Source: Candidatus Kapaibacterium sp. (GTDB lineage Bacteria; Bacteroidota; Ignavibacteria; Kapaibacteriales; NICIL-2). Taken from it: a stretch of 64,000 nucleotides of DNA. The notes beneath the pieces are model-generated. The model was not told the DNA's origin and did not search any database. It saw only the letters and a program-made list of their open reading frames with translations. Location of the stretch: positions 1,922,098 through 1,986,097 of the forward strand of contig BPHJ01000001.1 in the NCBI GenBank assembly GCA_026003475.1, given 5' to 3'. Shown here piece after piece: positions 39,701 to 44,105 of this stretch. Position numbers and translations under genes: made by a program. Every line of letters begins with the position of its first letter. The stretch's first letter is position 1.

Positions 39701-41182
39701 ATTCGCCATTCCCCATTCGCCAACTCCGGCTTCGATGTGGTGCTCGGCAATCCCCCCTTCATGGGCGGGCTCAAAATCAGCGGTGCCCTTGGGGACAAGT
39801 ACCGCCACTGGCTGGAGGTGGCTTATGAGCCCTACGGCGGCACGGCGGACCTGTGCGCCGCTTTCTACCGCCGCGCCTACAGCCTGCTCAAGCCCGGCGG
39901 GCGCCTGGGCATGGTCGCCACCAACACCATCGGCCAGGGCGACACCCGCGAGAGCGGGCTCGCCGTGATCCTCCAAGAGGATGGCACCATCACCTTTGCC
40001 CGCCGCTTCATCAAGTGGCCCGGCGCCGCCAATGTGGAAGTGAATCTCGTCGCCCTCCACAAACCCCACCATTCGCCACTCGCCACTCACCATTCGCCAT
40101 TCGCCATTCGCCATTCGCCGATCCTCGATGGCCAACCTGTGGACTTCATCTCCTCCCGCCTCGATGCCGACCCCGAAGCTGAACCCAAACGCCTCCCGCA
40201 AAACGAAGGCAAGGCGTTCCAGGGCGACATCGTGCGCGGTATGGGCTTTGTGCTGGAGCCGGAGGAGGCGGAAGCGCTGCTGGCCAAAGACCCGCGCAAC
40301 GCCGACTGCCTTTTCCCCTATCTGAACGGCGAGGACCTGAACAGCCACCCGGAGCAAAAGCCCAGCCGCTACGTGATTTGCTTCCACGACTGGGACCTGA
40401 AGCGCGCATGTCAATACCCCGACCTGCTGCGCATTGTGGAAGAGAGGGTAAAGCCTGAGCGAGAGCGGCTCCGGGGACCGGGCGACAAGCGCAACCGCGA
40501 ATACTGGTGGCAGTTCGGCGCTTACCGCGCTGGCATGCGCCGCGCCATCATCCCCCTCAAGCGGGTGCTGGTGCGAAGCCGCGTGAGTGAGTTGCATGCG
40601 ATCGCATTTGTCCCAAAAGGGTACGTTTACGGCGATGCAACGGTCGCCTTCGCCTTCGACGACGACTACCACTTCGCCCTGCTGCAATCCAGCGTGCATG
40701 AGGTGTGGGTATGGCGGCAAGCATCCAGCCTTGAGTCGCGAAATCGCTATACGCCCACGGACTGTTTTGACACCTTTCCGTTTCCGCCGGGGGAGTATGA
40801 GCGAATAGCGAATAGCGAATGGCGAATAGCGAATAGCGAATGGCGAGTGGAGGAGATGCCGGAGGCGTTTCAGCGGGCGGCGCGGGTGGGAGCAGGGTAC
40901 CACGAGCACCGGCGGCAAATCATGCTTTCCCGCCAACTCGGGCTCACGAAAATCTACAACCTCTTTCACGACCCGGCCTGCCAGGATGCGGACATCCAGC
41001 GCCTGCGCGAGCTGCACGCCGAGATGGACCGCGCCATCCTGGCTTGCTACGGCTGGGAAGATGTAGATTTGCGTTATGATTTCTACCCCAACGATCGCGG
41101 GCAGATGCGCTACACCGTTGCGCCCGAGGCGCGGCGGGAGCTTCTGCGGCGGTTGATAGAGCTGAATTTGAGGCTTGCGTGA
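36767..41182 (+). CDS. Eco57I/MmeI-type N6-adenine methyltransferase (DrmMI-like/type IIG) with in-frame repeat inserts
   Basis: ERKSTGSYYTP, motif I VLDPACGSGHFL, motif IV FDVVLGNPPF, MmeI-like specificity region (YWWQF, RYTPTDCFDTFPFP). Confidence 0.92.
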   Translation: MSLFPGIRIEGGLLGPDTLDQILTGELPGQRLSDFGLDGRRTLTDEIASAFADARAQWEVLKRRLERLPESDVATSVTRDTWVVPFLSLLGYELRYNPRAYELDGATFAISHRAGEAEDAPPVHIVGARQELGRVAPTGRPRLAPHSLVQEFLNRSEHLWGIATNGLTLRLLRDSTYVRRQAYVEFDLQQIFEEQRFNDFAVLYRLLHRSRLPRSAAEARDCLLEQYHQHAVEQGGRVRDRLRDGVEECIKRLANGFLAHPDNGELRARIANSEWRIEGQTEAPFAIRHSPFAQDFYRQLLRLVYRFLFLLVSEDRGLISAEPLYREHYGVARLRRLCERRSNYTEHDDLWCSLRVLWKVLSDERLAGLLGAAPLNGELFAPLALDHCTITNRDFLEAFWHLAYYRETPSAPPRRVNYAALDVEELGSVYESLLDYHPVIEANGEWRIANGLRFDLVFGSERKSTGSYYTPPELVTELIRSALEPVIEERLAEAKRMANSEWRMVSKNIREKFIHEVFPRLSRPGGLAKGDAGGQKGLPADQGLSPVGTVRPDQPDATSSHLDPGEHRRGLGTPLHSGVHPVSASSEREPDRAGDTSSPEHGSRAVPSGGSSVSDSGRPSAHREATEQLGTQPPTEKELTIAWESTPFAIRYSLFAQHALLSVRVLDPACGSGHFLLAAARRLGKELARIRTGEDEPAPERVREAIRDVVAHCIYGVDKNPLAVELCKVALWLEAHCSGKPLTFLDHRIRCGDSLVGVFDLGVLERGIPDEAFTPAGTDAKETAGLLKKRNRTERRDLESGQLRLPLVPAHVVDALGRKHHDIEAIADDSPAAVREKKSRYDRLLADPERLRVAEACDLWTAAFFQRFTPGLATSPAAITTDGVTDRLADRAHPQALAAARALAEHHRFFHWPLEFPEVFQRIANRGEKERIANSEVANSGERERIANSEVANGETDDPFAIRHSPFAEPRHSPFAAPIRHSPFANSGFDVVLGNPPFMGGLKISGALGDKYRHWLEVAYEPYGGTADLCAAFYRRAYSLLKPGGRLGMVATNTIGQGDTRESGLAVILQEDGTITFARRFIKWPGAANVEVNLVALHKPHHSPLATHHSPFAIRHSPILDGQPVDFISSRLDADPEAEPKRLPQNEGKAFQGDIVRGMGFVLEPEEAEALLAKDPRNADCLFPYLNGEDLNSHPEQKPSRYVICFHDWDLKRACQYPDLLRIVEERVKPERERLRGPGDKRNREYWWQFGAYRAGMRRAIIPLKRVLVRSRVSELHAIAFVPKGYVYGDATVAFAFDDDYHFALLQSSVHEVWVWRQASSLESRNRYTPTDCFDTFPFPPGEYERIANSEWRIANSEWRVEEMPEAFQRAARVGAGYHEHRRQIMLSRQLGLTKIYNLFHDPACQDADIQRLRELHAEMDRAILACYGWEDVDLRYDFYPNDRGQMRYTVAPEARRELLRRLIELNLRLA
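37570..37644. repeat. 75-bp hairpin insert: 4 x GCGAAT[A/G], 19-nt spacer, 4 x [C/T]ATTCGC
   Basis: Read directly; in frame in the MTase. Confidence 0.95.
38090..38117. repeat. Solo heptamer array, 4 x GCGAAT[A/G]
   Basis: Read directly. Confidence 0.95.
38251..38733 (+). mobile_element. 483-bp intervening-sequence-like element: inverted heptamer arrays (38251-38278, 38706-38733) flanking a four-helix-bundle gene
   Basis: Four forward and four inverse units bound the nested gene; removal restores an MTase-like EERLAEANQHALLSVRVLDPACGSG; mobility is inferred. Confidence 0.7.
38310..38690 (+). CDS. Four helix bundle protein (23S rRNA IVS protein/TIGR02436 family, Avd-like), nested in the +1 frame of the MTase
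   Basis: [11 protein letters not shown]...[30 protein letters not shown]...[17 protein letters not shown] family signature. Confidence 0.93.
   Translation: [126 protein letters not shown]
39529..39720. repeat. 192-bp compound hairpin insert of inverted heptamer arrays just before motif IV
   Basis: Forward GCGAATA blocks then inverse CATTCGC blocks; removal gives EFPEVFHNSGFDVVLGNPPF. Confidence 0.93.
40070..40118. repeat. Heptamer array, 7 x CA[T/C]TC[G/A]C
   Basis: Read directly. Confidence 0.95.
40801..40849. repeat. Heptamer array, 7 x GCGA[A/G]T[A/G]
   Basis: Read directly. Confidence 0.95.
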
Positions 41183-42171
41183 TGAAGGCCCGTAGTCGAG
41201 AGTTACTGGACCGTGCTATCGCGGCGATGGTCGCGGCCATCGAAATCTATAACAAGCCCGATTTCTCCTACCGGGCGGAATCGTTCGCGATCCTGGCGAC
41301 GAATGCCTGGGAATTGCTCCTGAAGGCCAAATGGCTCGCAGAGCACAACAACCGCATCTCCTGCCTGTACGTCCGTCAGGGAGGCGGCACGAAACGGAAG
41401 CGGATCAAGAAGACGGCGGCCGGGAACCCGATGACCCACAGCCTCGATTATCTGGCGAGCAAGCTTCGCGAGCAGGGAGCGCTGAACGAGCAGGCGTACC
41501 GTAACCTGAGGATTCTGAGCGAGTTCCGCGATTCGGCGGTGCATTTCTATCACCAGAATCCGCAGTTCGCGGAGCGACTGCAGGAAATCGGTGCGGCGGC
41601 AGTCAAGAACTTCAGCTCTGCGGCTCGGGAATGGTTCAAGGCCGAGCTCTCGCGGTACAACTTCTACCTCCTGCCCCTCGCCTTCGTATCGCCACTACAG
41701 TCAGCGGAGGGAGTCATACTCAGCGGTGAGGAGAAGCGGTTTCTGAAGTTCGTGAACGGGCTGAGTCAGGATGATCACGACCCCGCTTCGCCATATTCGG
41801 TTGCCGTGAATGTGGAGGTGCGGTTCGTTAAATCAAAGTCAGCCACCGCCGCCCCGGTAAGGATCACCACCGACCCAACGGCGCCCGCGGTCCGCCTGAC
41901 GGAGGAGCAGATAAGAGAAAAATACCCATGGGACTACGCGGAGCTAACGAAAAAGTGTCAGAAGCGCTATTCGAACTTCAAGGTTGACCGAGATTATCAT
42001 CGGTTGAGAAAGTCGCTGGAGTCGGACTTGCGATATGCGCACGTTCGCTTGCTCGATCCAGCGAAGCCGAACAGTCAGAAGAAGCTCTTTTTCAACCCCA
42101 ACATCCTGCAAGAATTCGACAAGCACTATGCCCCTAAAACAGACGGTGGCCGGGCGCAGACGCCTAATTAG
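41179..42171 (+). CDS. DUF3644-like protein (possible HEPN-like RxxxxH)
   Basis: AIEIYNKPDFSYRAESFAILATNAWELLLKA; RDSAVH. Confidence 0.75.
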   Translation: MMKARSRELLDRAIAAMVAAIEIYNKPDFSYRAESFAILATNAWELLLKAKWLAEHNNRISCLYVRQGGGTKRKRIKKTAAGNPMTHSLDYLASKLREQGALNEQAYRNLRILSEFRDSAVHFYHQNPQFAERLQEIGAAAVKNFSSAAREWFKAELSRYNFYLLPLAFVSPLQSAEGVILSGEEKRFLKFVNGLSQDDHDPASPYSVAVNVEVRFVKSKSATAAPVRITTDPTAPAVRLTEEQIREKYPWDYAELTKKCQKRYSNFKVDRDYHRLRKSLESDLRYAHVRLLDPAKPNSQKKLFFNPNILQEFDKHYAPKTDGGRAQTPN

Positions 42172-42232
42172 GCGACAGGGCGCGAGTGAGCATGAACGTG
42201 CTCAATTTCCATCCGTTGGTTTTTGACGTCTC

Positions 42233-42364
42233 CGCGACGCCGTGGCCTACATCCTGGACCAATTCCCCATCGTCCGGCGCAAGGATGAGGAGCGCTATGG
42301 CACGTATCGCACGAAGGAGATGATCCTGCAGCTCTACGATGCGATGCAGCATAGGCGGAGCTGA
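42233..42364 (+). pseudogene. Orphan 3' end of an Eco57I-type MTase, copy 1
   Basis: [43 protein letters not shown]. Confidence 0.8.
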
Positions 42365-42366
42365 GA

Positions 42367-43815: not shown

Positions 43816-43908
43816 CCTTCGCTACCCTGTGACGTTGTTCGGTCGTAGTTCTTCATTGCCGATGAGCGGGCTCGGGTGCTCGTGGATCGCATGCCGCTGG
43901 AGTGGCCG

Positions 43909-44040
43909 CGCGATGCAGTGGCGTACATCCTGGACCAATTCCCCATCGTCTGCCGCAGGGACGAGGAGCGGTATGGCACCTACCGCACCAAGGAGACAAT
44001 CCATGCGCTCTACGATGCGATGCAGCATAGACGGAGCTGA
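43909..44040 (+). pseudogene. Orphan 3' end of an Eco57I-type MTase, copy 2
   Basis: [43 protein letters not shown]; 114/132 nt identical to copy 1. Confidence 0.8.
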
Positions 44041-44042
44041 GA

Positions 44043-44105
44043 AACTCCCCATTCGCCATTCGCCACTCGCCATTCGCTACTCGCCACTCCCCACTCGCCA
44101 CTCGC
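44043..44105. repeat. Intergenic heptamer array (9 units, starts AACTCCC)
   Basis: Read directly. Confidence 0.95.

Follow-up and report, generated by a model that had tools for sequence, protein, structure and literature searches.

Why should a bacterial defence operon carry, twice over, the end of a gene that is nowhere else to be found in the genome? This question is raised by a 64,000-nucleotide stretch of DNA, here called the window, from the 2.16 Mb genome of Candidatus Kapaibacterium sp. (assembly GCA_026003475.1, contig BPHJ01000001.1, positions 1,922,098 to 1,986,097). Window positions 33657-49530 (+ strand) are spanned by a three-gene defence system with inserts: a gene for an SNF2 helicase, a gene for a methyltransferase, and a gene for a second helicase. 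In the gap between the methyltransferase gene and the second helicase gene there are a DUF3644 gene and an AAA_14/DUF4143 ATPase gene (here called the AAA gene), referred to below as cargo genes, and behind each of these stands a "tail", i.e., an orphan copy of the last 43 codons and the stop codon of a methyltransferase gene of another type (tail 1, 42233-42364; tail 2, 43909-44040; both + strand). The tails are probably the decaying leftovers of successive one-sided allele replacements, which would also have imported embedded defence genes.

The Two Tails

The original prediction, made from the letters of the window alone, had described a methyltransferase gene followed by a DUF3644-like gene, a tail with an array of short repeats, an AAA/DUF4143 gene, a second tail with an array, and a helicase gene, and every element was found where it had been placed. 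The two tails are identical at 114 of 132 nucleotides (nt), and their codon differences, nine synonymous and five non-synonymous, are exactly those that had been counted. The likeness extends beyond the coding sequence: positions 42233-42401 and 43909-44077 form a direct repeat of 169 nt with 85% identity, which takes in the stop codon, the sequence 'GAAACTCCCC' and the beginning of an array of heptamers. A repeat of this length and identity is far beyond chance. Behind tail 1, spacer and heptamer array (42365..42413) belong to the repeated unit and stop just before the AAA gene; behind tail 2, spacer and an array of about nine units (44041..44115) lead to the helicase start. The tail sequence occurs in the genome in these two copies only (a third match, at E 0.36, was disregarded). 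No gene in this genome ends in it: the expressed methyltransferase ends in '..RRLIELNLRLA'.

Tail 2 belongs to an open frame that extends back to 43849, giving a peptide of 63 amino acids (aa). It is fused to an orphan fragment of the 5' end of the helicase gene (43834-43889, + strand), which resembles helicase codons 18-36 or thereabouts (local alignment to 44170-44224, score 35, reached by none of 300 shuffles). The idea that both tails have a helicase-start joint was dropped, as the likeness of the stretch before tail 1 did not rise above shuffled sequences: its score against the helicase start was reached by 222 of 300 shuffles, and its score against the stretch before tail 2 by 137 of 300. 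An in-frame TGA (42224-42226) lies three codons before tail 1, and no evident ribosome-binding site was seen there.

By the method of Nei and Gojobori, the two tails have a synonymous divergence (dS) of 0.51 and a non-synonymous divergence (dN) of 0.079, and the ratio of the two (omega) is 0.155. An omega of this size together with such a dS agrees with a divergence accumulated largely while the sequences were still part of functional genes, in lineages separate from each other. As for the present state of the tails, at two positions where Arg and Leu are found in tail 1 and in all seven outgroup tails, tail 2 carries Cys and His, and orphan tails of relatives (loci L078 and L088-L090) are altered at otherwise invariant positions. 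On the strength of these changes the stubs are taken as dead, and we infer that the tails have no present function.

Identity of the Tail Peptide

In the tail peptide, the original prediction had recognised the C-terminus of an Eco57I-type methyltransferase, different from the C-terminus of the current gene. The tail peptides gave no match to Pfam, PADLOC or NCBIfam, and for this reason their identity was taken from a search of 1.84 billion representative proteins, 617 of which match the 63-aa frame of tail 2 at E<=1e-3. A Pfam scan took in 40 of 150 listed matches. All ten scanned matches of at least 1194 aa carry Eco57I and N6_Mtase, nine of the ten also carry MmeI_Mtase, and in all ten the tail motif lies between 4 and about 260 residues from the C-end. 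The other scanned matches are five shorter proteins with a partial Eco57I, 22 without any family and three of other kinds: an asparaginase piece fused to the tail, a protein with Peptidase_S24, and the protein P0002. The last of these (728 aa, ten matched stretches) was considered as a stack of ten tails and turned out to be an unrelated repeat protein instead.

Judged by these matches, the tail is the conserved C-end of an Eco57I/PglX-type methyltransferase with the motif NPPW, here termed type A, and both tails in the window are of this kind. The recognition was thus borne out: the long proteins that end in the tail carry Eco57I, and it is methyltransferase C-ends that the peptide matches. 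Type A proteins follow the PADLOC profile DrmMI only to position 879 of 1347, and their C-halves match type IIG profiles; a sequence search of the PDB with the type A protein P0023 gave no match.

A Mosaic Methyltransferase

The methyltransferase gene that stands upstream of the cargo genes (36767-41182, + strand, 1471 aa) carries Pfam Eco57I, N6_Mtase, MmeI_Mtase and MmeI_TRD, and matches DrmMI (PADLOC PDLC02643, 2.8e-225), with the profile aligned up to position 1310 of 1347. Sequence comparison has shown this gene to be a mosaic, consisting of a type A-like N-half and an MmeI/DrmMI-like C-half with the motif NPPF, here termed type B. The N-half (aa 1-920; 36767..39525, + strand) is common to this gene and the tail-bearing type A genes, as seen with P0007, P0023 and DrmMI. 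P0007, a protein of 1194 aa that ends in the tail, has 60% aa identity to aa 293-920 of the window protein; the match spans the read-through of an inserted PF05635 gene and stops at '..FFHWPLEFPEVF', beyond which the two have nothing in common. P0023 has 53% identity to the window protein over aa 6-509. The type B C-half (39716..41182, + strand) comprises an MmeI-like catalytic part, with the NPPF motif, and a target recognition domain (Pfam MmeI_Mtase and MmeI_TRD), and it matches MmeI in the PDB (5hr4) at 5.5e-11. The joint between the halves is a linker of tandem heptamers (39528..39722): likeness to P0007 and to the metagenome loci L043 and L026 ends at 39525, and likeness to the B half of a related genome, G007, begins at 39709.

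The mosaic is also apparent as blocks of nucleotide identity. The window and L043 are 84.9% identical over 33791-37598, then 76% and 73%; the window and G007 are 72-73% identical in the SNF2 gene and the N-half, 82-84% in the B half, and 85.9% in the helicase gene. The borders of these blocks coincide with the heptamer arrays at 37570-37644 and 39528-39722. As the current gene is a chimera containing the N-half of tail-bearing genes, replacement of the 3' half, with the old end left downstream, is the best reading of it.

Nested inside the methyltransferase open reading frame (ORF), in another frame, is a PF05635 gene, belonging to the family of the 23S rRNA intervening-sequence protein, a four-helix bundle (38310-38690, Pfam 5.1e-36). 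The region concerned (38251-38734) is bordered by inverted heptamer arrays. The methyltransferase frame is open through this insert in the window genome, in G007, in another related genome (G002) and in P0007, and L043 is without the insert. The layout recalls rRNA intervening sequences, here within a protein gene.

The Locus in Relatives

Among 60 related genomes, the tail is present only in G007. The three genomes of the genus (G002, G007 and the window genome) display three states of one locus. In G002, the SNF2 gene is followed by an intact type A gene, whose end is divergent, and then directly by the helicase gene, with no cargo and no orphan tail. In G007, there follow one another the N-half, a DUF559-like gene at the joint between N- and C-halves, the B half broken into three frames, a different gene, for 217 aa, a single type A remnant of 95 aa, and the helicase gene. 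The DUF559-like gene (locus L005 of G007, about 11900-12600, minus strand) has flanking 42-nt repeats and lies in frame exactly at the N/C joint. In L136, a gap of 1.3 kb (7087-8435) is found at the same joint. Thus, the border between the halves takes inserts as well as swaps.

A scan of metagenomes provided 76 loci, mapped by tblastn, in which the usual order is SNF2, methyltransferase (N-half, A half and tail), a gap of 0 to 8 kb, and helicase. In these loci, the window and G007 together, 81 tail copies were scored. A script assigned 38 as attached, 24 as lying at a contig edge, 8 as long remnants and 11 as short orphans; after correction by eye, in which two rows of L064 were swapped and L033 and L084 were moved to the edge class, there were 38 attached copies, 26 at contig edges and 17 orphans. 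Some of the orphans duplicate one another (L046 and L048; L088, L089 and L090). An orphan type B end stands behind a type A gene or tail in 7 of the 76 loci (L025, L026, L028, L029, L035, L043 and L076). In L025/L026, L028, L029, L035 and L076, the A gene before the orphan B end is intact or cut by the end of the contig, and the same holds for L098, a locus from a species genome with an orphan piece of a B end. Orphan B ends behind type A genes imply that the swaps go both ways. In species genomes, at least 587 matches were obtained and the best 80 were examined. These best 80 have mostly the order helicase, SNF2, methyltransferase (Streptomyces, Acidobacteriota, Verrucomicrobiota and others), and seven carry an orphan tail (L095, L097, L103, L120, L152, L153 and L160); as the map of L095 is the same as that of G007, the two may be the same genome, and L095 was not counted as independent.

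Stacks longer than that of the window exist in L043 and L064. The stack in L043 starts with an intact A gene and its tail, a RAMP-type cargo gene and an orphan A tail, continues with an ORF in which the first 16 helicase codons are fused to about 100 codons of a B end, and finishes with three more genes (one of them a PIN gene), an orphan A tail and the helicase gene. Each stub in it retains its original right-hand neighbour, and each joint lies inside the end of the previous gene. Fusions of a helicase start to a methyltransferase end are thus found with a B end in L043 and with A ends in tail 2 of the window, in P0003 (a 36-aa helicase start fused to the tail) and in P0005, which has the same '..VDR.P.EW.RDAVA..' joint as tail 2. 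In L058 and L109, an A tail, an AAA gene and the helicase gene follow one another. Comparison with relatives, which the original prediction had proposed, has in this way brought to light alleles that end in the tail, other cargo and longer stacks, and the arrangement is not invariant.

One further locus, L046 (2951-8323), has an SNF2 gene that is cut short and an unrelated N6_N4-type methylase gene in the place of the ArmB-type methyltransferase gene. A type A remnant of 54 aa with its tail still sits before the helicase gene there.

Proposed History of the Locus

A history can be proposed in which the middle of the locus was remodelled on several occasions, each time through recombination with another allele of this system. 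On the left side of each event, there would have been a homologous crossover, located either in the SNF2 gene or in the conserved methyltransferase N-half, where the conserved '..PEVF..GFDVVLGNPP[WF]' region would act as a natural module border. On the right side, there would have been an illegitimate joint within the last 45-100 codons of the resident methyltransferase gene. With the joint inside the resident gene end, this end would be left as a dead stub downstream of the incoming DNA.

Two such events would account for the window. In event 1, a type A allele would have entered together with the AAA/DUF4143 gene, which lay between its end and its helicase gene; the incoming DNA would have ended about 36 codons into the donor helicase gene and been joined there to the resident type A end, thereby creating the helicase fragment and tail 2. 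It is a helicase piece and not methyltransferase sequence that precedes tail 2, which places the older joint between a donor helicase start and a resident methyltransferase end. In event 2, the type B (MmeI-like) C-half would have entered with the DUF3644 gene behind it, and the type A C-half would have been replaced except for its last 43 codons, which became tail 1. By its position, tail 2 is the older tail. Both this order of events and the one-sided (homology-facilitated illegitimate) mechanism are what we infer from the arrangement. One-sided replacement would explain the stubs, the helicase-start pieces and the mosaic identity blocks together, and the low omega would follow if the tails had acquired most of their differences within functional genes. 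In favour of this history, the arrangement that event 1 requires of its donor (A tail, AAA gene, helicase) is present in L058 and L109.

The original prediction had envisaged successive replacements of the methyltransferase 3' half, each pushing the old end downstream and bringing a new specificity and a passenger gene. The mosaic gene and the variable relatives agree with the displacement of old ends, and the helicase-start piece before tail 2 does not fit replacement of the 3' half; as both tails are of type A, a specificity that is new each time is conjectural. As an interpretation the prediction is largely right and partly supported.

There are observations that weigh against successive replacement. 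The joint upstream of tail 1 contains no recognisable donor or resident sequence. No donor with a B half and a DUF3644 gene came to light: there is no DUF3644 match in the 76 metagenome loci or the 80 species-genome loci, and among 400 genomes of the phylum there are two DUF3644 homologues (G211 and G249), neither of them beside ARMADA-type genes. A tree of the tail pieces (117 columns) is weak, with tail 1 and the G007 tail grouped at only 85/81 support, and it is too short and weak to prove separate origins of tails 1 and 2. The G007 tail corresponds by position to tail 2 and is by sequence slightly nearer to tail 1 (over about 100 nt, 88.9% nucleotide identity to tail 1 and 84.4% to tail 2). 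The distant orphans L080, L091 and L093 may be attached to gene bodies that the query missed. Finally, both tails keep open frames with mostly intact motifs, which leaves room for a function.

Could the second tail have arisen in place? In this case, a unit of tail, array and the first 36 or so helicase codons was duplicated in tandem, and the AAA gene was inserted later into the duplicated helicase start; subsequently, the B half and the DUF3644 gene replaced the type A body, so that there was one replacement only and the tails are paralogues. We consider this unlikely, although the repeat takes in not only the tail with its stop codon but also the spacer, the array and a short stretch, likewise similar, ahead of the following start codon, the helicase 5' fragment lies exactly before tail 2, which is the joint expected of a tandem duplication, and P0003 has a helicase start and a tail as one ORF. 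Between the tails, dS is of the size seen from one genome to another, copies diverging after one of them had lost its function should have an omega higher than that observed, and tail 1 is no nearer to tail 2 than to the tail of G007. Moreover, the helicase start fused to a B end in L043 could not be produced by duplicating an A-type junction, and as helicase starts are fused to both B and A ends, a single tandem duplication cannot explain both. The arrangement of A tail, AAA gene and helicase in L058 and L109 also speaks against duplication.

Less likely again is that the orphan tails and arrays are kept by selection, either as short peptides that are translated and imitate the type A C-end or take its place, or as docking sites for recombination, including deletion of the AAA gene between the direct repeats. 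The radical changes in tail 2, at two positions constant in seven outgroups, the decay of other orphans at invariant positions, the in-frame stop codon before tail 1 and the want of an evident ribosome-binding site there are all at odds with selection, as is the occurrence of perfect arrays in few related records (see below). For it speak the open frames and most of the conserved residues, which both tails have kept; the finding of the helicase-start/tail joint in records from other organisms (P0005 and P0006); the restriction of such arrays to this one locus of the genome, at several module borders; and the sharp borders of the AAA segment in three other sequencing runs (see below). A site-specific integration, in which the cargo genes would be cassettes of mobile elements targeting the methyltransferase 3' end and the tails would be duplicates resembling attL and attR, appears very improbable. 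Integrases with gene ends as their targets classically leave direct repeats of a gene 3' end on either side of the inserted DNA, and the repeats here do flank the AAA gene. However, they are only about 85-86% identical, and the joints vary from locus to locus, from remnants of 45, 95 or 100 aa to helicase-start fusions. B-type ends are orphaned in the same manner, and no integrase or recombinase was found in the two window cargo genes or in 62 cargo ORFs of related loci, with the exception of an IS200-like match in L031.

Cargo Genes

The DUF3644 gene (41179-42171, + strand; Pfam DUF3644 2e-48, PADLOC PDC-S19 8.5e-130) starts within the end of the methyltransferase gene, whose stop codon it overlaps by 4 nt (41179-41182). 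It is this overlap alone that suggests that the DUF3644 gene may have arrived together with the B half. The AAA gene (42418-43815, + strand) was recognised by Pfam AAA_14/DUF4143 and by PADLOC PDC-S01 (1.8e-92). Both genes lie between the methyltransferase and helicase genes and on the same strand as these, as embedded defence genes do, and on their sequence matches both are defence candidates. The same kind of AAA_14/DUF4143 gene lies between tail and helicase gene in L058, L109 and L033.

The gap between the methyltransferase and helicase genes is a cargo hot spot. In the 62 ORFs, which come from this gap in related loci or adjoin orphan tails, Pfam families include PTPase, a Piwi protein with Hypoth_Ymh, RAMP, Schlafen/HATPase_c_4 and AAA_14/DUF4143, as well as AAA_15/AAA_21 ATPases, PIN, an IS200-like transposase and an N6_N4 methylase.

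The original prediction had also suggested that the direct repeats could excise the ATPase gene. For this, 24 sequencing runs were found, all as assembled contigs, of which four were aligned to 36000-50000 at 90% likeness. No joint skipping the roughly 1676 nt between the tails was found among the 15 joints listed (there were 53 more), and contigs drop rare variants. In run X1, 0.96 of the sampled words were present, and this run may represent the sample from which the window came. The AAA segment occurs in runs X2, X3 and X6 at 90% or more, beside DNA unlike that of the window, with borders at 42418 and 43808-43871. By eye, the loose end after 43808 in X6 reads like a helicase start directly behind the AAA gene. 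Contigs of X1 (depth 19.9) and X6 (depth 4.1) join 39659 to 42391 with one letter between, thus skipping the B half, the DUF3644 gene and tail 1. Such array-to-array joints may be the allele of another strain or an artefact of assembly, and were not used as evidence.

Heptamer Arrays

Runs of GCGAATR/CCAYTCG number 11 in the genome, and all are located within 36099-44105. Perfect 7-nt units in at least three exact tandem copies occur four times in the genome, again all at this locus. Several arrays mark module borders (37570-37644, 39528-39722, behind each tail and around the PF05635 gene), and many lie inside the SNF2 and methyltransferase ORFs, leaving the frame unbroken. Copy number varies among relatives: the window has '..EANGEWRIANG..' where L043 has '..EANSEWRMANGEANSEWRMANG..'. 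Perfect arrays were found in 5 of 79 related records searched (the window, G007, L043, L033 and L041), and orphan tails also occur at loci without them.

It is conceivable, though doubtful, that tail, arrays and helicase-start pieces form an integrase-free docking scaffold that marks the module borders of the defence operon. Such a scaffold might offer short homologies by which C-halves, with new specificity, and embedded genes are exchanged from strain to strain or deleted. As the arrays are confined to the locus, they would have to be made or kept at the borders by a process tied to the locus. If this were true, the stack would be a working cassette site and not debris.

System Type and Neighbouring Genes

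The first gene of the system (33657..36770, + strand) encodes an SNF2 helicase (ArmA/BrxHII/DrmD-like; Pfam SNF2-rel_dom and Helicase_C), with PADLOC matches to DpdE (1.3e-185), DrmD (2.3e-90) and BrxHII (4.8e-62). The last (44119-49173, + strand) encodes a YprA/DruE-like helicase of 1684 aa with an MrfA Zn-binding domain and a DUF559-like end (Pfam DEAD 1.4e-24, Helicase_C and MZB 2.1e-9; PADLOC DruE 1.4e-95). The best explanation of the locus, judged by these families, is an ARMADA-like anti-phage system, consisting of an SNF2 helicase, a PglX/DrmMI-type methyltransferase and a YprA/DruE-like helicase. Two features of DISARM class 1, the DrmMI methyltransferase and the DrmD SNF2 helicase, were also identified at the locus by PADLOC. 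Among the chosen ORFs scanned (23394-63814), there are no separate genes for DrmB (DUF1998) or DrmC (PLD nuclease); a DUF1998-type domain is fused to the helicase.

An orphan gene end is found at the helicase gene, too. About 30 nt past its stop codon begins an orphan copy of the last 109 or so codons of a helicase allele (49204..49530, + strand; 61% identity to helicase aa 1576-1684 by tblastn), with a weak Pfam match to DUF559. In nucleotides it is closer to the helicase ends of L026, L035 and L076, and the end in G002 is similar by eye; the copy represents a leftover of the tail type at a second gene. Further downstream (51002-61626) lies a second system, of the Hma type, with HmaA (51002-54373, 1.3e-181), HmaB split over two ORFs (56177-57559 and 57573-58916) and HmaC (58999-61626, 3.6e-137); within it, an ORF at 54973-56031 has weak matches associated with pAgo/SIR2. 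A search of Rfam with window positions 36000-50000 gave no match at E<=0.1.

Relation to Known Systems

ARMADA type I has been described as a BrxHII-like SNF2 helicase, a PglX-like methyltransferase (ArmB, with NPPW) and a YprA-like helicase, and a reversed gene order is mentioned as well (Bell et al. 2025 preprint, PMC12458937). The window has the same three genes; most distant relatives have the order helicase, SNF2, methyltransferase, and in the window and others the order is reversed. The window has the YprA-like helicase with MZB and the BrxHII-like SNF2 helicase beside a methyltransferase with Eco57I and N6_Mtase. It lacks the NPPW motif of ArmB, its methyltransferase having NPPF, whereas G002, L043 and P0007 have NPPW. 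It also differs from ARMADA as described there by the MmeI/DrmMI-like C-half and by an operon that contains cargo genes and orphan gene ends. In the accessible text of the preprint, the words 'truncated' and 'hotspot' are absent, and 'embedded' (two places) and 'recombination' (three) concern other matters.

Loci of DISARM, BREX, type I restriction-modification and Hma systems often contain extra genes in the same orientation, from which the PDC models were built (Payne et al. 2024, 10.1101/2024.01.29.577857). Both window cargo genes match PDC models, and the cargo of related loci is diverse in a similar way to that in the accessible text of Payne et al. The words 'recombination', 'truncated' and 'fragment' are absent from that text, and the study filtered out systems with pseudogenes; leftover gene ends are thus not described in it. 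Literature searches, supplements left aside, listed no paper that deals with orphaned ends of methyltransferase genes at DISARM or ARMADA loci.

The pattern at the locus recalls the rhs and cdiA loci. There, 3' pieces of alternative alleles, without promoters and interspersed with other genes, stand downstream of a full-length gene, a pattern read as displacement by incoming ends; the orphans have a junction motif in common with the expressed gene, can be recombined back onto it, and have each an immunity gene of their own behind them. The original prediction had drawn this comparison, which is apt as far as the pattern goes: in the window, too, a full-length gene precedes 3' fragments of alternative alleles. 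It fails in that the tail is missing from the expressed B-type gene, and the window tails can thus not be swapped back onto the expressed gene by homologous recombination (in L043, the attached tail does share sequence with the orphans). In addition, stubs of the window type are only 43-100 codons long, and the genes interleaved with them are unrelated defence candidates that vary by locus, not cognate partners.

As for the mechanism, homology-facilitated illegitimate recombination reportedly occurs in naturally transformable bacteria. It has one homologous anchor and one illegitimate joint, and for this reason what would remain is a stub of the resident 3' end together with a little of the gene that comes next in the donor. 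The identity blocks and the fusions of helicase starts to methyltransferase ends fit such a footprint, and a footprint in sequence is what is seen here. Specificity is also exchanged within other systems. Phase-variable type I systems hold silent hsdS cassettes, and here as there the specificity part is exchanged at a conserved flank, in this case '..FFHWPLEFPEVF..GFDVVLGNPP[WF]'. The same likeness holds for target recognition domains, which move between restriction-modification genes (Furuta and Kobayashi 2012, PMC3467074). In contrast to both, half of the catalytic domain moves too in the window and there is no invertase; unlike hsdS cassettes, the leftovers, which are directly oriented, do not have the length needed for a switchable cassette.

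Meaning of the Leftovers

The locus is of a known kind, namely an ARMADA-like system with embedded cargo, and offers useful evolutionary evidence rather than a new molecular machine. Embedded genes in defence systems now serve the discovery of anti-phage genes, and their route of entry is not addressed in the accessible texts of Payne et al. (2024) or Bell et al. (2025, PMC12458937). The leftovers would be a physical record of that route: alleles of the same system recombine, anchored in conserved genes, and along with cargo the incoming piece carries in a catalytic and recognition half of a different kind, the joint being often in the end of the resident gene. The stubs also give the relative order of events, as in L043. 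For annotation, a simple rule would follow, that short ORFs ending in the tail motif beside such systems are gene remnants and not new genes. The two C-halves, ArmB-like NPPW and MmeI/DrmMI-like NPPF, are very different and yet appear to be interchangeable on one N-half, in both directions, which would link the methyltransferases of ARMADA and DISARM at the level of single loci.

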